Positions 2,488-26,061 of a DNA stretch of 64,000 nt are shown here, piece by piece; position 1 is the first letter of the stretch, and every line of letters starts with the position of its first letter. Location of the stretch: NCBI RefSeq assembly GCF_003334815.1, contig NZ_QOWO01000004.1; one strand, written 5' to 3'. This DNA comes from Escherichia coli (GTDB lineage Bacteria; Pseudomonadota; Gammaproteobacteria; Enterobacterales; Enterobacteriaceae). The notes beneath the pieces are model-generated. The model ran no database searches and was not told the origin of the DNA. It worked only from the letters and a program-made list of their open reading frames with translations. A program made the translations under genes and the position numbers.

Positions 2488-3576
2488 ATGAATAACCGGG
2501 AAAAGGAGATCCTTGCAATTTTACGGCGTAACCCGCTGATTCAGCAGAACGAAATTGCGGACATGCTGCAAATCAGCCGTTCGCGCGTTGCGGCGCATAT
2601 TATGGATTTAATGCGCAAAGGCCGGATTAAAGGCAAAGGTTACATTCTCACCGAGCAGGAATACTGCGTAGTGGTGGGGACAATCAATATGGATATTCGC
2701 GGGATGGCGGATATCCGTTACCCGCAATCGGCTTCTCATCCCGGTACAATTCATTGCTCAGCGGGCGGCGTGGGACGCAACATCGCCCACAATCTGGCGC
2801 TGTTAGGCCGTGACGTCCATTTGCTTTCAGTGATTGGCGATGACTTTTATGGCGAAATGCTCCTGGAAGAAACGCGCCGTGCCGGCGTGAATGTCTCCGG
2901 CTGCGTTCGTTTGCATGGTCAAAGCACATCGACGTATCTGGCAATTGCCAATCGAGACGATCAAACCGTGCTGGCGATTAACGATACCCATCTGCTGGAA
3001 CAGTTGACACCGCAACTACTGAACGGGTCGCGCGATTTACTTCGTCATGCGGGCGTGGTACTGGCTGATTGCAACCTGACAGCCGAGGCGCTGGAATGGG
3101 TCTTTACCCTCGCTGATGAAATCCCGGTGTTTGTCGATACCGTTTCAGAATTCAAAGCGGGCAAAATCAAACACTGGCTGGCGCATATTCACACCCTGAA
3201 ACCCACTTTACCGGAGCTGGAAATTTTATGGGGACAGGCGATCACCAGCGATGCTGACCGTAATACCGCAGTGAATGCATTGCATCAGCAAGGTGTTCAG
3301 CAACTGTTTGTTTATTTGCCCGATGAGTCAGTTTATTGCAGCGAAAAGGATGGAGAACAATTTTTGCTGACCGCGCCAGCGCATACGACAGTAGACAGTT
3401 TTGGTGCTGACGATGGTTTTATGGCGGGCCTGGTATATAGCTTTCTTGAAGGATACAGTTTCCGCGACAGCGCCCGTTTTGCGGTAGCCTGCGCGGCAAT
3501 TTCGCGCGCCAGCGGCAGCTTAAACAACCCTACCCTGTCTGCCGATAACGCGCTTTCATTAGTGCCAATGGTGTAA
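2488..3576 (+). CDS. yeiI: Uncharacterized PfkB/ribokinase-family kinase with N-terminal HTH domain
   Basis: 362-aa ORF; N-terminal winged-helix-like segment followed by sugar-kinase motifs (GGVGRNIA, DxxGAGD); paralog of PsuK. Confidence 0.9.
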   Translation: MNNREKEILAILRRNPLIQQNEIADMLQISRSRVAAHIMDLMRKGRIKGKGYILTEQEYCVVVGTINMDIRGMADIRYPQSASHPGTIHCSAGGVGRNIAHNLALLGRDVHLLSVIGDDFYGEMLLEETRRAGVNVSGCVRLHGQSTSTYLAIANRDDQTVLAINDTHLLEQLTPQLLNGSRDLLRHAGVVLADCNLTAEALEWVFTLADEIPVFVDTVSEFKAGKIKHWLAHIHTLKPTLPELEILWGQAITSDADRNTAVNALHQQGVQQLFVYLPDESVYCSEKDGEQFLLTAPAHTTVDSFGADDGFMAGLVYSFLEGYSFRDSARFAVACAAISRASGSLNNPTLSADNALSLVPMV

Positions 3577-3682: not shown

Positions 3683-4933
3683 TCAAGCTAAACCAATAAA
3701 GAGCCCGGCAATGGTCGCACTCATCAAGTTGGAAAGCGTCGCCGCCGCCAGCGCCCGTAAACCAAGCTGGGCGATTTCCGGCGCACGGTGTGGCGCAACC
3801 GCAGAAAACGCCCCCACCACCACCCCGATAGAACCAAAGTTAGCGAAACCGCACAACGCGAAGGAAATAATCGCCACAGTTTTAGCATCGAGAGTGCCAG
3901 CCGTTTGCAGATAGGGTGAGAAATTGAGATAAGCGACAAATTCATTTATTGCCAGTTTCTGTCCAATCAAACTCCCGGCAAGATTCGCATCACTCCAGTC
4001 CACACCCATCACCCACGCCAGTGGAGCCAGCAGGTAACCTAAAATGGACTCCAGCGAGGCATGTTCAAAACCAAACCAGCCACCAACGCCGCCGATAATA
4101 CCGTTAATCAACGCAATTATTGCAACAAATGCCATCACCACTGTTGCCACACCTGCGGCGATTTTCAGCCCGGTCATTGCCCCTGTCGCAGCGGCTTCAA
4201 TAATGCTTTTTGGCGGTGTTTCGGTGAAAGAGAGGTTATTAAAGGAAACCTGCGAAGATTCCGTTGCCGGGCTTAACAGGCGGGCAAACAAGATCCCGCC
4301 AGGGATCGCCATTAATGATGCCGCCAGCAGATATTCCACAGGCACGCCCAGTGCGGCGTAACCAATCATTGTCGAACCAGCAATCGAGGCCATGCCACTA
4401 CAAATCGCTGTAAATAATTCATTGCGATTCAGACGATCGATAAAGGGTTTGACGATTGCCGGAATTTCGTTTTGCCCGAGGAAAATGGTGGTGACCGCGA
4501 CGAATGACTCGATCTTGCTGATATTTAATGCTTTCTGGAAGATACCGCCGAGAATTCGAATTAAAATCCCCATCACACCGATGTAGTAGAGAATACTCAC
4601 CAGCGCGGTGACGAAGATAATTGCCGGTAACACCCTGAAACCAAAGATAAATCCTGCACCATCAAATAAGGTATCCATTTTCGGTCCGACCAGAGAACCG
4701 AAGATAAATGCGCTACCCGCGTCGCTGTACGCCATCACTTTATGCACGCCAAAAGCGACTTTTTCAGCGACCCAACGCCCTGGCGGTAACCAAAGCATAA
4801 TGCCGCCAATCACGACCTGTAACACTAACGCCGCGCCAACGGTACGCAGGCTGATCTTCTTCTTGTTTACTGACAGTAAAAACGCAATCGTCAGCAATAC
4901 CACCATTCCCAGAACACTTCTCATGACATCCAT
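3683..4933 (-). CDS. nupX: Concentrative nucleoside transporter family permease NupX
   Basis: 416-aa multi-TM ORF; about 85 percent identical to PsuT in this window. Confidence 0.9.
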   Translation of the reverse strand: MDVMRSVLGMVVLLTIAFLLSVNKKKISLRTVGAALVLQVVIGGIMLWLPPGRWVAEKVAFGVHKVMAYSDAGSAFIFGSLVGPKMDTLFDGAGFIFGFRVLPAIIFVTALVSILYYIGVMGILIRILGGIFQKALNISKIESFVAVTTIFLGQNEIPAIVKPFIDRLNRNELFTAICSGMASIAGSTMIGYAALGVPVEYLLAASLMAIPGGILFARLLSPATESSQVSFNNLSFTETPPKSIIEAAATGAMTGLKIAAGVATVVMAFVAIIALINGIIGGVGGWFGFEHASLESILGYLLAPLAWVMGVDWSDANLAGSLIGQKLAINEFVAYLNFSPYLQTAGTLDAKTVAIISFALCGFANFGSIGVVVGAFSAVAPHRAPEIAQLGLRALAAATLSNLMSATIAGLFIGLA

Positions 4934-5032
4934 AGTGATTATCTCTTCATGTCATATTGGGCGACGGCTTTCTGCCCATCAGAAATAGCCAGGCCTGCAT
5001 CTTGCGATACCGGCCCGGCTTGTTATCAACAC

Positions 5033-5974
5033 TTAATGGGTTTTGATGTAGCCGCGCACGCACTCTTCGACTAATCCCCAGAACCAGTCTGTATCAATAG
5101 TGATGCCGACTTTGGTATTGGCGGGCTTGCCAAGAACGCCCAGCTCGTCGCAGACGGTACGCCCATAGCAAGGGCCACTGTTGACGTCCACTTCGACGTA
5201 CATCTCCTGGGTTTTAATGCCATCAGGGTTAATCAGATAACCGATGCAGGTGGCGTCGTGCACCGGGCCGCCAGCAAGGCCGTAGTTTTCGAACTGCGTT
5301 TTGAGAGTGAAGTTCATGATGTCGCTGAACAGCTCTCCGGCGGGGCCGCCTGCCCTTTCCATCCGAGCAATCACGTCCGGGGTGCAAACGGTCTGGTTGG
5401 TGAGATCGAGGCCCATCATCACTAATGGAACGCCGGAGGTGAACACTACGCGTGCGGCTTCCGGGTCGGCAAAGATGTTGAACTCGGCAGATGGCGTGAA
5501 GTTGCCTGTACCGTAAGCGCCGCCCATTAGCACAATTTCACGGATTTTGGGCAGGATCGCGGGTTGCATACGCATTGCCACCGCGATATTTGAAAGCGGA
5601 CCAACCGGCACCAGAGTGATATCGCCATCGCTTGCCATCAGGGTATCAATGATATATTTCACCGCATGAGTGCTTTCTGCCTGGCGGGTCAGCGGCTCGA
5701 ATACCGGGCCATCCAGTCCGGTTTCACCGTGAATATTATCGGCAACGATTTGTTGACGCATAATGGGCTGCGGCATCCCCGCATAAACCGGAACATTAAT
5801 CTCCAGTTTCTGGCAAACATTCAGGCCATTAATTAATGTTTTATCAAGCGTCTGATTACCCGCTACAATAGTGATGCCTAATAAATCTATTGCCGGATGT
5901 TTCGCCGCCATCATTATAGCAATAGCATCATCATGACCCGGATCACAATCCAGAATAATTTTTCTCTTTTCCAT
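5033..5974 (-). CDS. rihB: Pyrimidine-specific ribonucleoside hydrolase RihB
   Basis: 313-aa ORF starting [23 protein letters not shown], the nucleoside hydrolase DxDxxxDD motif. Confidence 0.9.
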
Positions 5975-6142
5975 TGTTTATTTCCTCTGTTTCCAGTTGC
6001 GTTATTTTTTCTACAGCAAAGAAAATTCGACCGGGCCGATGATTGAATCTTAACAACAGCGTACGTATGCTAAATATGAGAAATCTCATAGCGGATAAAC
6101 ATCGTGAAAGAAATCCACAATAATGATCTTAAGCAGCAATTG

Positions 6143-6802
6143 ATGAGTGAATCCGCGTTTAAGGATTGCTTTTTAACGGATGTTTCAGCCGATACGCGGC
6201 TGTTTCATTTTTTAGCGCGTGACTACATTGTGCAGGAAGGGCAACAGCCGTCCTGGCTGTTTTACCTGACGCGAGGCCGCGCCAGGCTTTACGCCACGCT
6301 AGCTAATGGTCGCGTGTCGCTGATCGATTTCTTTGCCGCCCCCTGTTTTATTGGCGAGATTGAGTTAATCGATAAAGACCATGAACCGCGTGCGGTGCAG
6401 GCTATTGAAGAGTGTTGGTGCCTTGCGCTCCCTATGAAACATTACCGTCCGCTGTTATTAAACGACACGCTATTTTTACGAAAACTCTGCGTCACCTTAA
6501 GTCATAAAAATTATCGTAATATTGTTTCTTTAACTCAGAATCAATCATTTCCGTTAGTGAATCGCCTGGCAGCATTTATATTACTCTCGCAGGAAGGTGA
6601 TCTTTATCACGAAAAGCATACGCAAGCGGCAGAGTATTTAGGCGTTTCTTATCGACATCTTTTATATGTTCTCGCGCAGTTCATTCACGACGGTTTATTA
6701 ATTAAAAGCAAGAAAGGGTATCTCATTAAAAACAGAAAGCAGTTGTCAGGACTGGCGCTGGAGATGGACCCGGAGAATAAATTCTCCGGGATGATGCAGT
6801 AA
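6143..6802 (+). CDS. yeiL: Crp/Fnr-family transcriptional regulator YeiL
   Basis: ORF with cNMP-binding-like fold and C-terminal HTH; ATG at 6143 gives 219 aa; an upstream in-frame GTG at 6104 is an alternative start. Confidence 0.8.
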
Positions 6803-6825
6803 AAATTATTTTCAATAGCGCGATT

Positions 6826-6863
6826 GCCGGATGCAACGCTTAATACGTTTTATCCGGTCTACA
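6826..6863. repeat. REP element downstream of psuT
   Basis: GCCGGATGCAACGCTTAATACGTTTTATCCGGTCTACA matches REP consensus; same relative position as the REP downstream of the paralog nupX. Confidence 0.55.
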
Positions 6864-6872
6864 AATCGAGCA

Positions 6873-8123
6873 TTACGCCAGACCAATAAAGAACCCGGCA
6901 ATAGTCGCACTCATCAGGTTGGAAAGCGTTGCTGCTGCCAGCGCCCGTAAACCAAGCTGGGCGATTTCCGGCGCGCGTTTTGGCGAAATAGCCGAAAATG
7001 CGCCAACGACAACACCGATAGAACCAAAGTTAGCAAAACCACAAAGCGCAAAGGAGATAATCGCAATGGTTTTCACTTCCAGCGTGCCGCCTGTTTGCAG
7101 GTATGGGGAGAAACTCAGGTAAGCGACGAATTCGTTAATCGCCAGTTTCTGCCCAATCAGGCTACCCGCAAGATTGGCATCACTCCAGTCCACACCCATG
7201 ATCCACGCCAGCGGTGCCAGCACATAGCCAAAAATACTTTCCAGAGAGGCATTGGCGAAACCAAACCAGCCGCCAATTCCGCCGATAATGCCGTTGATCA
7301 GCGCAATAATTGCGACAAACGCCATTACCACCGTCGCCACACCAGCGGCGATTTTTAGCCCGGTCATCGCACCGCTCGCCGCCGCTTCGATAAAGCTTTT
7401 TGGCGGCGTTTCGCTGAACGACAGATTTTCAAATGTGACCTGCGAAGGCTCGGTTGCCGGGCTAAGAATACGTGCAAACAAAATCCCGCCAGGGATCGCC
7501 ATCAGCGATGCCGCTAACAGGTAGTCAATTGGTACGCCCATTCCGGCATAACCAATCATCATCGAACCAGCAATGGACGCCATCCCGCTACAAATTGCGG
7601 TAAACAACTCGTTGCGATTCATGCGATCGATAAACGGTTTAACGATCGCCGGGATCTCATTTTGCCCGAGGAAAATAGTAGTAACCGCAACAAAAGATTC
7701 GATTTTGCTGATGTTGAGGGCTTTCTGGAAAATGCTGCCAAGGATGCGAATCAGCAGCCCCATCACGCCAATGTAGTACAGCAGACTGATGAGCGCAGTA
7801 ACGAAAATAATCGCCGGAAGTACGCGAAAGGCGAAGATAAAACCCGCACCGTCAAACAGGACATCCATTTTCGGCCCAACCAGCGAACCAAAAATGAAGG
7901 CGCTACCGGCATCACTGTAAGACATCACTTTATGAACGCCTAATGCCGCCTGTTCTACTGCCCATTTTCCCGGTGGGAAGTAGAGCATGATGCCACCAAT
8001 AGCGATTTGCAGCAGCAGTGCGGCTCCAACCGTGCGCAAACTGATGCTCTTTTTATTCACTGACAACAGAAATGCTATTGCCAGTAACACCACCATCCCC
8101 ACAACACTTCTCATTATATCCAT
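6873..8123 (-). CDS. psuT: Putative pseudouridine transporter (CNT family)
   Basis: 416-aa ORF, paralog of NupX; last gene of psuK-psuG-psuT arrangement. Confidence 0.9.
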   Translation of the reverse strand: MDIMRSVVGMVVLLAIAFLLSVNKKSISLRTVGAALLLQIAIGGIMLYFPPGKWAVEQAALGVHKVMSYSDAGSAFIFGSLVGPKMDVLFDGAGFIFAFRVLPAIIFVTALISLLYYIGVMGLLIRILGSIFQKALNISKIESFVAVTTIFLGQNEIPAIVKPFIDRMNRNELFTAICSGMASIAGSMMIGYAGMGVPIDYLLAASLMAIPGGILFARILSPATEPSQVTFENLSFSETPPKSFIEAAASGAMTGLKIAAGVATVVMAFVAIIALINGIIGGIGGWFGFANASLESIFGYVLAPLAWIMGVDWSDANLAGSLIGQKLAINEFVAYLSFSPYLQTGGTLEVKTIAIISFALCGFANFGSIGVVVGAFSAISPKRAPEIAQLGLRALAAATLSNLMSATIAGFFIGLA

Positions 8124-8216
8124 AATGATTTTCCCTTCATGCCGGTAAACCCGGCGTCAGCGCCAGGTTTTGGTATGCTTGATGAGTACGGGCGACGGCT
8201 TTCTGCCCGTCAGAAA

Positions 8217-9155
8217 TTAACCCGCGAGACGCTGATATTCTTTGGCAATTTCGCTCGCCAGAATGGCGTTGTTGAACACCAGCTGGATGTTGGATTTCAG
8301 GCTGTCACCGCCGGTCAGTTCAGCAACGCGCGCCAGCAGGAATGGCGTACTTTCTTTACCAATGACTCCCTGAGCTTCAGCTTCAGCTACCGCCTGATCG
8401 ATCGCCGCATTGATAGTGTGTTCCGGCATAGCAAACTGTTCCGGGATCGGGTTCGCTACCACGAGGCCACCGTTCAGACCGCTTTGCCATTTCACCGCCA
8501 TTGCACGGGCAATTTCGCTGGCGCTGTCGAGACGAATGCTGACGTCAAACGGGCTGGTGCGGCAGAAAAACGCAGGCAGCGCTTTAGTCTGATAGCCAAT
8601 TAACGGCACACCGAAGGTTTCTAAATACTCAGTGGTTAATCCTAAATCGAGAATAGATTTCGCCCCGGCACAAACAACGGTGACATTAGTATTTGCCAGT
8701 TCTTGCAAATCGGCAGAAATATCGAAGGTATGTTCCGCCCCGCGATGCACACCACCAATTCCCCCGGTGGCAAATACTTTAATTCCGGCAAGCGCCGCAA
8801 TAATCATCGTTGAAGCCACAGTGGTTGCGCCATTTTTTCCGGCGGCAACAACAAAAGGTAAATCGCGACGACTAACTTTGGTCACGTTATGCCCTTCACG
8901 ACCCAGTAATTCAATTTCTTCTTTGCTTAACCCCACTTTCATCACGCCGCCAATAATGGCGATCGTGGCAGGTACAGCGCCCTGTTTACGAATAGTTTCT
9001 TCAACTTCAATTGCGGTCTGGGCATTTTGTGGGAACGGCATCCCGTGAGAAATAATGGTCGATTCCAGCGCCACAACCGGTTTTTTGTTTTTTAAAGCGT
9101 CCTGCACTTCCGGGGAAATTTGTAATAATTCAGGGGAAATTTTTAATTCAGACAT
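8217..9155 (-). CDS. psuG: Pseudouridine-5'-phosphate glycosidase
   Basis: 312-aa ORF recognised as PsuG (YeiN); overlaps psuK by 13 bp. Confidence 0.9.
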   Translation of the reverse strand: MSELKISPELLQISPEVQDALKNKKPVVALESTIISHGMPFPQNAQTAIEVEETIRKQGAVPATIAIIGGVMKVGLSKEEIELLGREGHNVTKVSRRDLPFVVAAGKNGATTVASTMIIAALAGIKVFATGGIGGVHRGAEHTFDISADLQELANTNVTVVCAGAKSILDLGLTTEYLETFGVPLIGYQTKALPAFFCRTSPFDVSIRLDSASEIARAMAVKWQSGLNGGLVVANPIPEQFAMPEHTINAAIDQAVAEAEAQGVIGKESTPFLLARVAELTGGDSLKSNIQLVFNNAILASEIAKEYQRLAG

Positions 9156-10084
9156 TCTGCGTTCTCCACTAACGATATAACGTTGGCAATCGATAAATCG
9201 GGGTTATTGGTGTATTCACAGGAGAGCGCCATTGACGAACATCCCTGTGCGAAACGAACAGATTCGGCAAACGGCATTCCGTCTACCCAACACGAAGCAA
9301 GTCCCGCCATCATGGCATCGCCCGCTCCGGTAACATTAATAACATTGGTTTTGATCGGCGCAGACCAGCCACTTTCACCGCTGATATCGCTGTAATAAAC
9401 GCCGTCGCCGCCCATGCTCAATACCAGTCGGTTCAGGCCATGTTGATGGAACCAGGCAGCAACTTTTGCCACATCTTCACGCCCTGACAGCGCAATCCCA
9501 CTCAGGGTTTCCGCTTCAAGGCGGTTTGGCTTGAGAGTGTGGATCTGATTTAGACGGTCGCGCACTTTGACACATTTCCATGCCGAAACCGGATCGACAA
9601 ATACGGGTACGTTGGCGGCATTATCCAGAATCCATGCCAGTGCCTCTTCACTGATATTACAGTCCGCGACAATGACCTTTGCCCTCTGAATAAATTCACC
9701 GTGCTGTGCGAGATATTCAGCTGTAATAGCGTTGCTAATATTCATGTCATTTATAGCAACCAGCATTTCACCGGTATTATCGAGTAATGATAAATAACTC
9801 GACGTATTTTCTCCCGGCACAATCAGGCATTTATCGACATAAACGCCAGATTGATTGGTTTGCGTTAGCAGCGATTGACCATAAAAATCACTGCCTACGG
9901 CGCTCAGTAGCCAGGCTTTGTTACCCAGCAACGCCAGGTTTTGTGCAATATTGCGCCCTACTCCACCAGGCGTAAATTTTATTTTACCTGGATTTGAATC
10001 CGCATAATTTAATGATTCATGTGAATATCCGGCGACATCAATATTCGCCGAACCTATAATTACGACATAATCCTTTTCGCGCAT
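9143..10084 (-). CDS. psuK: Pseudouridine kinase (PfkB family)
   Basis: 313-aa ORF with ribokinase-family motifs (GGVGRNIA, GAGDAMMAG). Confidence 0.9.
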   Translation of the reverse strand: MREKDYVVIIGSANIDVAGYSHESLNYADSNPGKIKFTPGGVGRNIAQNLALLGNKAWLLSAVGSDFYGQSLLTQTNQSGVYVDKCLIVPGENTSSYLSLLDNTGEMLVAINDMNISNAITAEYLAQHGEFIQRAKVIVADCNISEEALAWILDNAANVPVFVDPVSAWKCVKVRDRLNQIHTLKPNRLEAETLSGIALSGREDVAKVAAWFHQHGLNRLVLSMGGDGVYYSDISGESGWSAPIKTNVINVTGAGDAMMAGLASCWVDGMPFAESVRFAQGCSSMALSCEYTNNPDLSIANVISLVENAECLN

Positions 10085-10321
10085 AGCACGTCCTCTGGTA
10101 AAAAATTACCAACCCTGTCAATCCACAAGAATATAGATACTGCAAAGACGGTTTAAACATGTGTTCATATTTAAACATGTGCTCATAGTATGCATGTTTT
10201 ACGTAAAGTAAATTACCGCCAGAGAGGCAAAATGGGCAGATTTGAGCAGGCTCACAAAATGCGATTAAATGCCTGAATTACAAAAGCGAGGAATTTGTGA
10301 CGGGATGCACAGAACAGAACA

Positions 10322-10350
10322 ATAAAAAAGGGCAGAAAATAATCTGCCCT
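10322..10350 (-). terminator. Rho-independent terminator downstream of fruA (fruBKA operon)
   Basis: On the minus strand, hairpin GGGCAGA-N7-TCTGCCC followed by TTTTTTATT. Confidence 0.6.
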
Positions 10351-10506
10351 TGAGGAAATAACCTGAGTGTTTGATGAACGTTTGAAGTTTCTACTGAAAA
10401 ATAAAACCATTTAAATTCATAAAATTACATTCACAAACCGGTCATTCTCTTTGCGCTCATCAAATGTTACAGGACAGGAAATTTCTGCCCTGTAACACAC
10501 CTTTTA

Positions 10507-12198
10507 TTACGCTGCTTTCGCTACTGCGTCCACTTCCGGACGTTTCAGGAAGGCATAGGCCAAACCCGCCACCAGCGTACCGGCAATAATTGCTACCAGG
10601 TAACCCAATACCGGCGTAATAGCGCCAGGGATCAGCAGAACAAACAGACCACCGTGCGGTGCCATCAGTTTCGCACCAATCGCCATTGAGATTGCGCCAG
10701 TCAGCGCCCCACCCACGATACAGCACGGCAGCACACGCATCGGATCACGAGCAGCAAACGGAATTGCACCTTCCGAAATGAAGCACAGTCCCAATACCAG
10801 AGCGGCTTTGCCACCTTCCTGCTGCGCTTTGTCGAATTTGCGACGCGCCACCATTGTTGCCAGACCCATTGCCAGCGGTGGCACCATACCTGCCGCCATA
10901 ATCGCCGCCATCGGGCCATAGGTTTGAGTACTCAGCAGACCCACACCGAATGCGTACGCTGCTTTGTTTACCGGACCGCCCATGTCAGTACACATCATGC
11001 CACCGAGGATCGCCCCCAGCAGAACCGCATTCGCAGTCCCCATGGTCTGCAGCCAGTGAGTCAGCCCTTCGAGAATGCCAGCAACTGGTTTACCGATCAG
11101 GTAGATCATCGCCAGACCGACCACCAGACTGGAAATTAGCGGAATGATCAGGATCGGTTTCAGCGCCTCCATACTCTGTGGCAGTTTCAATTGCGTACTG
11201 ATTAACTTCGCAATGTAACCAGCCAGGAAGCCCGCAATAATACCACCAATGAAGCCAGAACCGGTGCTGACCGCCAGCATACCGCCAATCAGACCCGGAG
11301 TGAGGCCCGGACGATCGGCAATGGAAAAGGCAATATAACCTGCCAGTACCGGCACCATCAGCGCAAAGGCTGAACCACCACCAATCTGCATCAGCGCCGC
11401 AGCCAACGTACCCGGCTCTTTAAACGCTTCGATACCAAAAGCAAAAGAAAGCGCGATACACAGACCACCTGCAACGACCATCGGCAGCATGTAAGAAACG
11501 CCCGTCAGCAAGTGACGGTATGCGCCTGCACTCTCTTTCTTACTTTCAGTGGTCGCCGTTTGAGCTTTGCCCGCCGGTTCATACGGCGTTGCTTCAGCAA
11601 CCGCTTTATCCAGTTCCTGCGCGGTTTTCTTCAGCGCCAGACCGGTAGAGGTACGATACATCGGTTTACCAGCAAATTTCGCCAGATCCACTTCGATATC
11701 TGCCGCCACAATCACCAGATCCGCTGCTGCGACTTCTTCGGGAGTGATTGCATTACCCGCGCCAACAGAACCACGGGTTTCAACTTTCACCCACCAGCCA
11801 CGTTTTTTCGCTTCGGTTTCAATGGCTTCAGCCGCCATAAAGGTGTGTGCTACGCCAGTCGGGCAAGCAGTCACCGCAACTACGCGTTTCGGACCGCTGG
11901 CGGCAACTGGTGCTGTCGCAGCGACCGGCGCAGTGTAAGGTTTCGCATGGCCTTTGGCTTCACTCAGGAACAGCTCAGGGTGCGCAACTGCCCGGGAAAT
12001 ATCGCCCAGCCAGACATTTTTACCGTTCAGCGCGCTGTCGTTCGGGATGGAATCACCGAGAACAATCGCCATTTCAGCGTCGTTCGGATTGTCGATGATT
12101 TCCAGTTTTGCTTTTCGCGCCGCCGCGCCCAGCAGGGTCTTCGCCATATAGGCGCGTGCCTGACCGAGATTAGCGTCAATAATCAGCAGCGTTTTCAT
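10507..12198 (-). CDS. fruA: PTS fructose-specific EIIB'BC component
   Basis: 563-aa ORF recognised as FruA; operon order fruB-fruK-fruA on minus strand. Confidence 0.95.
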   Translation of the reverse strand: MKTLLIIDANLGQARAYMAKTLLGAAARKAKLEIIDNPNDAEMAIVLGDSIPNDSALNGKNVWLGDISRAVAHPELFLSEAKGHAKPYTAPVAATAPVAASGPKRVVAVTACPTGVAHTFMAAEAIETEAKKRGWWVKVETRGSVGAGNAITPEEVAAADLVIVAADIEVDLAKFAGKPMYRTSTGLALKKTAQELDKAVAEATPYEPAGKAQTATTESKKESAGAYRHLLTGVSYMLPMVVAGGLCIALSFAFGIEAFKEPGTLAAALMQIGGGSAFALMVPVLAGYIAFSIADRPGLTPGLIGGMLAVSTGSGFIGGIIAGFLAGYIAKLISTQLKLPQSMEALKPILIIPLISSLVVGLAMIYLIGKPVAGILEGLTHWLQTMGTANAVLLGAILGGMMCTDMGGPVNKAAYAFGVGLLSTQTYGPMAAIMAAGMVPPLAMGLATMVARRKFDKAQQEGGKAALVLGLCFISEGAIPFAARDPMRVLPCCIVGGALTGAISMAIGAKLMAPHGGLFVLLIPGAITPVLGYLVAIIAGTLVAGLAYAFLKRPEVDAVAKAA

Positions 12199-24966: not shown

Positions 24967-26061
24967 ATGGGCGCTTACCTGATTCGCCGTCTGTTGCTGG
25001 TGATCCCAACATTATGGGCGATTATCACCATCAACTTTTTCATCGTGCAAATTGCGCCTGGCGGTCCGGTCGACCAGGCCATCGCCGCCATTGAGTTTGG
25101 TAATGCCGGAGTATTACCCGGCGCAGGCGGTGAAGGTGTTCGTGCCAGCCATGCGCAAACGGGTGTCGGCAATATCAGCGACAGTAATTACCGTGGCGGA
25201 CGCGGATTAGATCCAGAAGTGATCGCTGAGATCACTCATCGCTACGGTTTTGATAAGCCGATCCACGAACGTTACTTCAAAATGCTCTGGGACTACATCC
25301 GCTTTGATTTTGGCGATAGCCTGTTTCGCAGCGCCTCGGTGCTGACGCTGATTAAAGACAGTCTGCCGGTTTCCATCACCCTCGGATTGTGGAGCACGCT
25401 GATTATCTATCTGGTGTCGATTCCGTTAGGCATTCGCAAAGCTGTTTATAATGGGAGCCGCTTTGACGTCTGGAGTAGCGCATTTATCATCATCGGCTAC
25501 GCCATTCCGGCCTTTTTGTTTGCCATCCTGCTGATTGTCTTCTTCGCGGGCGGCAGCTATTTCGACCTGTTCCCTCTACGCGGCCTGGTTTCCGCTAACT
25601 TTGATTCGCTGCCGTGGTATCAGAAAATCACCGATTATCTGTGGCATATCACGCTGCCGGTGCTGGCGACAGTGATTGGTGGCTTTGCGGCGCTGACCAT
25701 GCTGACAAAAAACTCATTCCTTGATGAAGTGCGCAAGCAATACGTGGTGACCGCGCGTGCGAAAGGGGTAAGTGAAAAAAATATTCTCTGGAAACATGTG
25801 TTCCGCAACGCCATGCTGCTGGTGATTGCCGGTTTTCCGGCGACGTTTATCAGCATGTTTTTTACCGGCTCGCTGCTGATTGAGGTGATGTTTTCACTCA
25901 ATGGTCTGGGCTTACTGGGCTACGAAGCGACCGTCTCGCGCGATTATCCTGTAATGTTTGGTACCTTGTATATTTTCACCCTGATTGGCCTGCTGCTGAA
26001 TATTGTCAGTGATATCAGCTATACGCTGGTTGATCCGCGTATTGATTTTGAGGGACGTTAA
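24967..26061 (+). CDS. yejB: ABC transporter permease YejB
   Basis: 364-aa multi-TM ORF, immediately follows yejA. Confidence 0.9.

Follow-up and report, generated by a model that had tools for sequence, protein, structure and literature searches.

Among the closest described relatives of the system treated here are the ROK repressors (NagC, Mlc and Bacillus XylR). They place an N-terminal winged helix-turn-helix (wHTH) before a sugar-kinase-like sensor of the pathway's substrate, leave the kinase reaction to a catalytic paralogue, and act at operators over the promoter. We compare them with a locus of Escherichia coli, lying in a stretch of 64,000 nucleotides (RefSeq assembly GCF_003334815.1, contig NZ_QOWO01000004.1) that we call the window. 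The locus holds the pseudouridine operon psuKGT, a short tandem repeat at positions 10152-10201 upstream of it, and the gene yeiI, whose product also joins a helix-turn-helix (HTH) to a kinase-like domain. The likeness to ROK is functional only, since the sensor fold in YeiI is PfkB (ribokinase-like, PF00294) and not a ROK/actin-like ATPase, and the sites are paired 12-bp dyads as opposed to one site of 23 bp. Comparison across genera supports the view that the repeat is a conserved pair of palindromic putative protein-binding sites at the psuKGT promoter. We believe, with slightly more confidence than doubt, that these are twin operators (O1 and O2) lying right after the -10 element, where a YeiI dimer would repress, pseudouridine (or its phosphate) would induce, and CRP would activate.

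BirA, NadR and the archaeal RbkR offer a second comparison, since in each an N-terminal HTH is fused to an enzyme of the regulated pathway. The HTH-PsuK genes of Yersinia, Pasteurella and Shewanella resemble them: each lies behind its own sites, would regulate itself, and keeps the GAGD motif of the kinase. The differences are also clear. BirA and NadR use a product or adenylate as co-repressor of biosynthesis or salvage, whereas here the substrate of a catabolic pathway is the expected inducer, and in E. coli the enzyme PsuK and the putative regulator YeiI are separate paralogues.

The sites themselves look most like those of BlaI, MecI and CopY. These regulators are winged-helix dimers that read a 4-2-4 dyad of the form xACA-NN-TGTx (TACA-NN-TGTA in the cop box), and the bla and mec operators set two dyads side by side over the promoter. 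Here the half-site is AACA instead of TACA, YeiI has no Penicillinase_R match, and there is no proteolytic signalling partner. The promoter as a whole is built like those of lac, gal, deo and nupG, with a weak -35, a TGTGA-N6-TCA(A/T)A sequence about 70 bp upstream and a specific operator over the inferred start, but the specific regulator is not of the LacI, DeoR or CytR type. With its PfkB fold and its HTH_24/MarR-type HTH, YeiI is a member of none of the ROK, BirA/NadR/RbkR or BlaI/MecI/CopY groups. As a cis element the repeat is unremarkable; what stands out is the family of regulators that it predicts and the connection with a recurrent adaptive mutation.

The repeat and its two palindromes

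The element reads TTTAAACATGTGTTCATA / TTTAAACATGTGCTCATA / GTATGCATGTTTTACG and as a whole lies 68-117 bp upstream of psuK. The original prediction saw in it a tandem 18-bp direct repeat with one mismatch, followed by an inverted AAACATG core, some 70-120 bp upstream of psuK, and all of this holds. The two 18-mers (10152-10169 and 10170-10187) are identical by direct reading at 17 of 18 positions, and Tandem Repeats Finder gives 10152-10187 a period of 18, 2.0 copies, 94% matches and a score of 65. A repeat search returns the AAACATG/CATGTTT inverted pairs, with 10155-10161 and 10173-10179 set against 10193-10199. With up to 3 mismatches allowed, the 18-mer occurs at only these 2 places in the 64 kb, against an expectation of 0.05, and none of 100 shuffles of the window gives 2 such matches.

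We differ about the unit. Each 18-mer holds a 12-bp palindrome, (A/G)AACA-NN-TGTT(T/C), and the two centres are 18 bp apart. The dyad symmetry is present in both units of the K-12 type, as GAACA-CA-TGTTT and GAGCA-CA-TGTTT. What had been read as direct repeats with an inverted core is correct as sequence and better described as two dyad-symmetric sites plus one half-site:

10173..10184, minus strand: putative operator O1, GAGCACATGTTT, within the unit 10170-10187, found by pattern search; centre 10178.5, about +1 of the proposed promoter
10155..10166, minus strand: putative operator O2, GAACACATGTTT, within the unit 10152-10169; centre 10160.5, about +19
10190..10201, minus strand: half-site AAACA, CGTAAAACATGC on the psuK strand, in the spacer between -35 and -10; this is the inverted partial copy of the original prediction

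The half-site lies 15 bp from O1 and is thus out of the 18-bp register. In the alignment across genera its AAAC is invariant and the next A nearly so. The pattern search also matched 12-mers at 155-166 and 25792-25803, which we take as chance: they lie in or near coding sequence (25792-25803 is inside an open reading frame of 364 amino acids) and have no partner site.

The repeats had been called perfect as well, and this part needs correction. They are near-perfect in the K-12-type allele only, and elsewhere the palindromes are kept while the repeat is not. In the allele of the phylogroup-B2 / E. albertii type the units are about 12/18 identical and both palindromes are intact, so near-perfect direct repetition belongs to the K-12-type allele and the functional entity, judged from these alleles, is the dyad pair. 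Some 1,100 of the 5,304 E. coli genomes, of the B2 type and with ATCC 25922 as an example, have this psuKGT allele, which is too divergent for megablast. It could have arisen by old recombination or by allele replacement at the locus. The promoter of ATCC 25922 (5307-8973 of the locus fetched as L024) resembles that of E. albertii, TTTACA-16-TATTAT, and its nupX is reduced to a fragment.

Two further variants were seen. The swine isolate E. coli 210205630 (NZ_CP015912.1, 173-226 of the fetched locus L022) has three tandem 18-mers, and so three putative operators; because of this isolate we regard the 18-mer repeat as prone to slippage. In at least 2 E. coli genomes (NZ_LR883050.1, fetched as L023, and H80, NZ_CP178707.1) an IS1 insertion has eliminated the promoter and operators of psuK together with its 5' portion.

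A number of known operators and elements were compared with the sites and set aside. The PhoP repeat has a period of 11 bp, against 18 here. The DeoR operator matches at 11/16 positions only, and across the stretch between the sites. KdgR has an odd spacer with a 1-bp centre. Operators of the LacI/PurR/Cra type have a central CG that is absent here, and lack a 2-bp spacer. The LexA box, CTGT-N8-ACAG, does not fit. The Gram-positive LexA box GAAC-N4-GTTC does resemble GAACATATGTTC, the O2 homologue of E. albertii, but these bacteria are not known to have such a LexA. An NsrR-like half-site ATGCAT at 10190-10195 is unconserved in other genera. A TGGCA-N6-TGCCA sequence before the Shine-Dalgarno resembles a sigma-54 -24/-12 element, but it changes symmetrically and is too close to the start codon.

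Conservation of the paired sites

The argument for function is comparative. The palindromes read GAACATGTGTTT and the perfect GAACATATGTTC in E. albertii, GAACATGTGTTT and GAACATGTGCTC in Citrobacter, and AAACACATGTTT and GAACATGTGCTC in Buttiauxella. Across E. coli and these three the outer AACA and TGTT are kept, the two central bases vary, and the spacing is always 18 bp. We aligned 14 enterobacterial sequences upstream of psuK, and in them O1 is kept as (G/A)A(A/G)CA-NN-TGTT(T/C).

The same pair is found well beyond these relatives. We counted a site pair where two copies of AACA-NN-TGTT, each matching at least 7 of the 8 core positions, lie 18 or 19 bp apart just upstream of the first psu gene. 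Such a pair is present in 12 of the 14 lineages examined, and dinucleotide shuffles of each upstream region yield one in 0-4 of 2000 trials. The spacing is 18 bp in Yersinia, Serratia and Pasteurella, and 19 bp in three lineages: Shewanella, where the pair includes the perfect palindrome GCAAACATATGTTTGC, Aliivibrio, and a metagenomic gammaproteobacterium contig. The negative controls were psuG loci without a neighbouring kinase (L025-L027); they had tiny upstream regions or lay on short contigs, and the word-index search with PsuG gave close relatives only.

The position is kept too. In every lineage the pair is downstream of a conserved -10 or abuts it, and in Yersinia, Serratia and Pasteurella it sits between a promoter-like TTTACT-17-TAAAAC and the start codon. 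The annotated starts of the HTH-PfkB genes of Yersinia (6001-6027 of the locus fetched as L015) and Serratia (5001-5027 of L018) add 9 residues (MFKNKQVS.) that occur in no homologue, and these overlap the operator pair. The real start in both is probably the ATG at codon 10, judging by the homologues, and with a start 9 codons later the pair falls upstream of it. The earlier proposal of an operator for a dedicated psu regulator thus gains comparative support, from pairs conserved across genera at a fixed spacing beside the promoter. The candidate it named, YeiL, does not.

YeiI, YeiL and the genes that travel with the sites

The genes needed for this comparison are as follows (psuK, psuG and psuT from open reading frames and RefSeq annotation):

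9143-10084, minus strand: psuK, with its start codon at 10084
8217-9155, minus strand: psuG
6873-8123, minus strand: psuT
6873-10084, minus strand: the operon psuK-psuG-psuT (psuKGT)
2488-3576, plus strand: yeiI, coding for the wHTH and PfkB protein, the proposed regulator
3683-6802: a block of nupX, rihB and yeiL between yeiI and psuT
10507-12198, minus strand: fruA, beyond psuK

YeiL had been proposed as the regulator on the ground of its adjacency. We ran a co-occurrence test by tblastn over about 13 kb per genome, and it goes against YeiL. The genes yeiL, rihB and nupX appear only in the loci of E. coli and the close strains E1V33 and E. whittamii. In the same test yeiL was absent from 15 of the 19 fetched loci that have sites, and among the loci without it are those of E. 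albertii, Citrobacter, Buttiauxella, Raoultella, Salmonella, Yersinia, Serratia, Pasteurella, Shewanella and Aliivibrio. All of these named loci retain both sites, or at least one strong one in the case of Salmonella. We reject YeiL as the binder of the repeats on this co-occurrence. The block yeiL-rihB-nupX looks like an insertion of the E. coli clade between yeiI and psuT, to judge from where it occurs; tblastn shows NupX to be a close paralogue of PsuT, at about 88% identity.

The gene that does travel with the sites codes for a wHTH-PfkB protein, and every locus with the pair has one. In E. albertii, Citrobacter, Buttiauxella, a Raoultella metagenome-assembled genome (MAG) and a Salmonella accessory island, yeiI is directly convergent to psuT. 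The island (Salmonella enterica GCA_010633625.1, 8001-12315 of the fetched locus L021) carries yeiI and psuT-psuG-psuK beside a RelB/ParE toxin-antitoxin pair and a transposase. From this island yeiI and psuKGT appear to move as a unit, a module of four genes.

In seven other lineages (Yersinia, Serratia, Pasteurella, Shewanella, Aliivibrio, the metagenomic gammaproteobacterium and a Burkholderiaceae MAG) the HTH-PfkB gene heads an operon that also holds psuG, with or without a nucleoside transporter, and there is no separate psuK. The site pair lies just upstream of it in 6 of these 7. Two-domain homologues of this kind are widespread in Gammaproteobacteria, with one more in the Burkholderiaceae MAG.

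The protein itself has the parts that such a regulator would need. Residues 1-48 of YeiI form the winged HTH and residues 58-348 the PfkB kinase-like domain. Pfam gives HTH_24 at 2.3e-10 and PfkB (PF00294) at 3e-68, and the PfkB fold and signature are confirmed. The HTH matches the HTH_24, HTH_11 and MarR-type profiles, and neither Penicillinase_R nor ROK is among the Pfam matches of YeiI. The PfkB domain is 39% identical to PsuK. An AlphaFold model (pLDDT 86) shows a three-helix winged HTH and then a PfkB fold; its best match in the PDB is E. coli PsuK, with a target-normalised TM-score of 0.94, and this PDB comparison found no solved HTH-PfkB structure. Across HTH-PfkB proteins the wHTH is nearly invariant, including its third, presumed recognition helix SRSxVAxHIMxL, and a wHTH so little changed fits a conserved DNA motif.

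The kinase-like domain is where an inducer would be expected to bind. Residues S30, N143 and K170 give PsuK its affinity for pseudouridine and its ligand-triggered conformational change (PMC9061257). They correspond to S83, N196 and K223 of YeiI and are invariant in the alignment of these proteins. Two PsuK subunits join through a beta-thumb into a homodimer, in which a loop from the other subunit reaches over to the ligand (PMC9247573). By analogy, a dimer like that of PsuK offers a route from ligand binding to the geometry of the HTH in YeiI.

The catalytic loop tells the two paralogues apart. GAGD is intact in PsuK and in the HTH-kinases that lead operons. In the YeiI of E. coli, Citrobacter and Salmonella it reads GADD, with the preceding Gly replaced and the final Asp, which we take to be the conserved PfkB catalytic Asp, kept. 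The difference between GADD in YeiI and GAGD in PsuK and the HTH-kinases suggests that an ancestral kinase-repressor may have split into an enzyme (PsuK) and a sensor (YeiI). A psuK mutant cannot use pseudouridine although yeiI is present (report cited in PMC12506659), which would fit such a split. YeiI is listed in the literature as an uncharacterised sugar kinase or a hypothetical transcription factor (PMC9061257, PMC12506659, PMC6055005). We found no paper in the literature searched that links YeiI, 'PsuR' or an HTH-kinase to psu regulation.

The proposed promoter and a recurrent adaptive mutation

The alignment of 14 upstream sequences resolves into conserved blocks: a CRP-like site, TTTAC(T/A), AAACA, the -10, O1, O2, and a hairpin with the Shine-Dalgarno. 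The stretch from O2 to the hairpin is unconserved. The features of E. coli are these:

10207..10212, minus strand: proposed -35, TTTACT; TTTAC is invariant across genera
10185..10190, minus strand: proposed -10, TACTAT; TA...T (TACTAT, TATTAT, TATCAT, TACAGT) in 14/14
10241..10256, minus strand: CRP-like site TGTGAGCCTGCTCAAA, a 9/10 match to TGTGA-N6-TCACA; centre 10248.5
10095..10112, minus strand: small inverted repeat TTGGTAATTTTTTACCAG, just before the psuK Shine-Dalgarno, in the proposed 94-nt leader

The -10 hexamer lies exactly 16 bp past TTTAC(T/A) in all 14 sequences. We infer a weak promoter, TTTACT-16-TACTAT, with the repeat pair directly after it, and a start at the A at 10178, about 7 nt past the -10. 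No experimental transcription start for psuK was found in the literature reached. A start at 10178 would make O1 span about -6 to +6 and O2 about +13 to +24, and would put the centre of the CRP-like site at about -70.5.

Support for this assignment comes from evolution experiments. An A->C single-nucleotide polymorphism (SNP) in the psuK/fruA spacer, at MG1655 position 2257444, is a case of recurrent parallel adaptation, and it is always this allele (PMC7518454, PMC9509342, PMC6731689). Five of 7 young mice yielded it, as did additional old mice and a resident strain (PMC7518454, PMC9509342). In 3 populations kept in long-term stationary phase an A->C 'psuKp' allele emerged too (PMC7858067), which is probably the same change. 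To place the mouse-gut SNP we used four srlR mutations listed alongside it, together with NC_000913.3 coordinates; an offset of 1978 is the sole value that reproduces all four srlR amino-acid changes. The SNP falls at window position 10210, 9 bp outside the 10152-10201 element. On the psuK strand it is T->G at the third base, turning TTTACT into TTGACT. This position in the hexamer supports the assignment of TTTACT-16-TACTAT. The third base is the same in all 14 natural sequences, and among the E. coli RefSeq complete genomes searched only 5 have the TTGACT allele (ER1821R, ER2683, S17-1, ST18 and fEC.1); by their names, at least the first four would be laboratory strains.

A promoter scan also returned TTTAAA-16-TATATT (10157-10130). 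We set it aside as the main promoter: beyond the E. coli clade it is not kept, and one Escherichia genome has an 11-bp deletion that shortens its spacer from 16 to 5 bp.

In the CRP-like site TTGTGA is invariant in the 14 sequences. The site reads TGTGAttctgtTCATA in Citrobacter, Buttiauxella and E. albertii, and the Salmonella copy has diverged in its second half. A centre at -70.5 from the proposed start compares with class I CRP spacings near -61.5 and -71.5. We found no report in the literature of psuKGT regulation by CRP.

The small inverted repeat in the leader changes on both sides. Its arms are GGTA/TACC in the K-12 type and GGCA/TGCC in Citrobacter, Salmonella and B2, with E. albertii showing the wobble intermediate GGTA/TGCC. 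This pattern points to either a hairpin conserved in the leader or a further dyad site.

Over 11.6 kb we count 5 differences between the window and MG1655 (7092, 8497, 10400, 13309 and 15243), none of them in the psuK promoter or operators; the DNA is K-12-like and belongs to a close relative of MG1655, not to that strain. The spacer between psuK and fruA is 422 bp, with a strong terminator on the fruA side (10328-10351). Downstream of that terminator, on the psuK strand at 10216-10230, sits a weak terminator-like hairpin, GCCTCTCTGGCGG then TAATTTACTT, whose T-rich tail shares positions with the -35 hexamer, the adaptive SNP site included.

Deletion of recA under ciprofloxacin left PsuG (PsuK in one) among the most reduced proteins in several clinical E. 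coli isolates (PMC11039860). This suggests that psuKGT is induced in the SOS response, directly or via RNA turnover. No LexA box is visible in the psuK promoter.

How the sites might work

On our reading one YeiI dimer would bind each palindrome, and two dimers would cover about -6 to +24 and block initiation or promoter escape. Pseudouridine or its phosphate would bind the kinase-like domain, alter the geometry of the dimer and free the DNA, and cyclic AMP-bound CRP would activate at the weak -35. Where the operon opens with the HTH-PfkB gene, as in Yersinia, Serratia, Pasteurella, Shewanella and Aliivibrio, its product would be kinase and repressor in one and would regulate its own gene. In the loci examined from E. 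coli, Citrobacter and Salmonella two proteins would share these roles: PsuK lacks an HTH, and YeiI retains one but has an altered catalytic loop.

A wider statement follows the same lines, and we hold it more tentatively, with a little more doubt than confidence. The HTH-PfkB proteins may be an undescribed family of kinase-derived one-component regulators. The ancestral form, which Yersinia, Serratia, Pasteurella, Shewanella and Aliivibrio would still have, would be a pseudouridine kinase that moonlights as repressor of its own operon at twin AACA-NN-TGTT sites, and in Escherichia and Citrobacter it would have split into PsuK, with the HTH lost, and a pseudo-kinase sensor-repressor, YeiI, with GAGD changed to GADD.

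Several points weigh against repression by YeiI. Its link to the sites is one of association only. Our literature searches turned up no data on YeiI or psuK-promoter binding, on expression or on transcription starts. The Salmonella island and the Burkholderiaceae MAG have one strong site each, and a second HTH-PfkB paralogue in Xenorhabdus, unlinked to psuG, is without a pair close to it. Enterobacterial sequences served to define the motif, and some of the distant sequences were viewed by eye before scoring. No site is recognisable upstream of yeiI itself. We had considered autoregulation of yeiI and dropped it, as the gene begins 2 bp past nfo and there is no room for a promoter or operator. 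The evolution experiments reported only the -35 SNP and no yeiI loss-of-function alleles, and a simple repressor would lead one to expect such alleles, as for frlR, srlR and dgoR. Repression would still fit if gut and starving cultures already contain the inducer, so that promoter strength sets the limit, or if the promoter stays too weak even when derepressed.

The same absence has led us to consider that YeiI binds these operators and activates, or acts both ways. A promoter-up SNP with no regulator knock-outs is the pattern of an activator-dependent promoter, the weak -35 is kept invariant across the alignment, and relative to the TTTAAA/TATATT pair the sites would lie at the -35 and upstream of it. 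That pair is the one that is not conserved outside the E. coli clade and that loses its spacer in one Escherichia genome. The Yersinia, Serratia and Pasteurella sites fall between promoter and start codon, and downstream of or abutting the -10, where the pair is found in every lineage, is the position of a repressor; we consider an activating YeiI rather unlikely. It is also unlikely, we think, that a factor encoded elsewhere, such as a nucleoside/pyrimidine or global regulator, binds the palindromes while YeiI is a mere kinase paralogue with an HTH. Half-sites of the AAACA/TGTTT type do resemble parts of several known operators: the DeoR operator TGTTAGAATTCTAACA matches the inter-site stretch at 11/16, KdgR and PurR have the half-sites GAAACA and GCAAAC, and the PhoP hexamer is TGTTTA. 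The geometries of KdgR, LacI/PurR, PhoP and LexA do not fit, and in three bacterial orders the HTH-PfkB protein is the sole DNA-binding protein encoded in the psu locus. The transfer of yeiI and psuKGT together into the Salmonella island also speaks against an outside factor.

YeiL, the CRP/FNR-family regulator first proposed, seems very improbable to us. Its gene adjoins psuT in E. coli, and the sites can be read as a 5-N4-5 dyad, TGAAC-N4-GTTYA, with an FNR-like geometry. The half-site differs from TTGAT and TGTGA, though, and both sites and promoter are conserved in the many loci that lack yeiL. A role in RNA is quite improbable. A start near 10178 would put both units in the 5' untranslated region, where a psuK leader hairpin might serve stability, translation or pairing with small RNAs. 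The K-12 leader folds with an 11-bp repeat stem at -25 kcal/mol (z = -2.4), and psuK mRNA is listed as a target of the small RNA RprA by RIL-seq and TRIC-seq (bioRxiv 10.1101/2025.09.11.675593). Against this, the long stem is limited to the K-12-type allele with its near-identical units, and the half-sites keep the sequence AACA/TGTT across genera without covariation. A 12-nt palindrome with a 2-nt centre is too short for a stable hairpin alone, O1 straddles the proposed start and would be only partly transcribed, and there is no Rfam family, the sole match being a chance-level long non-coding RNA model at 13.9 bits against a gathering score of 48. The near-identity of the units in the K-12-type allele, together with the varying copy number in the swine isolate, might also be taken to mean that slippage in an AT-rich intergenic region duplicated the unit to no functional effect. 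We find this hardly credible, since a pair at 18-19 bp is conserved across three orders, far above the shuffled expectation, and keeps a fixed position relative to a conserved promoter.

Implications

If YeiI does repress psuKGT through the twin sites, YeiI gains a function and a DNA motif, and the promoter, the operators and a probable CRP site of the pseudouridine catabolic operon are defined. The operon is also of practical relevance to pseudouridine bioproduction strains, in which psuK and psuG are engineered. The circuit would then control a locus that E. coli has repeatedly up-mutated in the mouse gut and in long-term starvation. The HTH-kinase fusions would be a possible case of an enzyme-regulator that split into two specialised paralogues.

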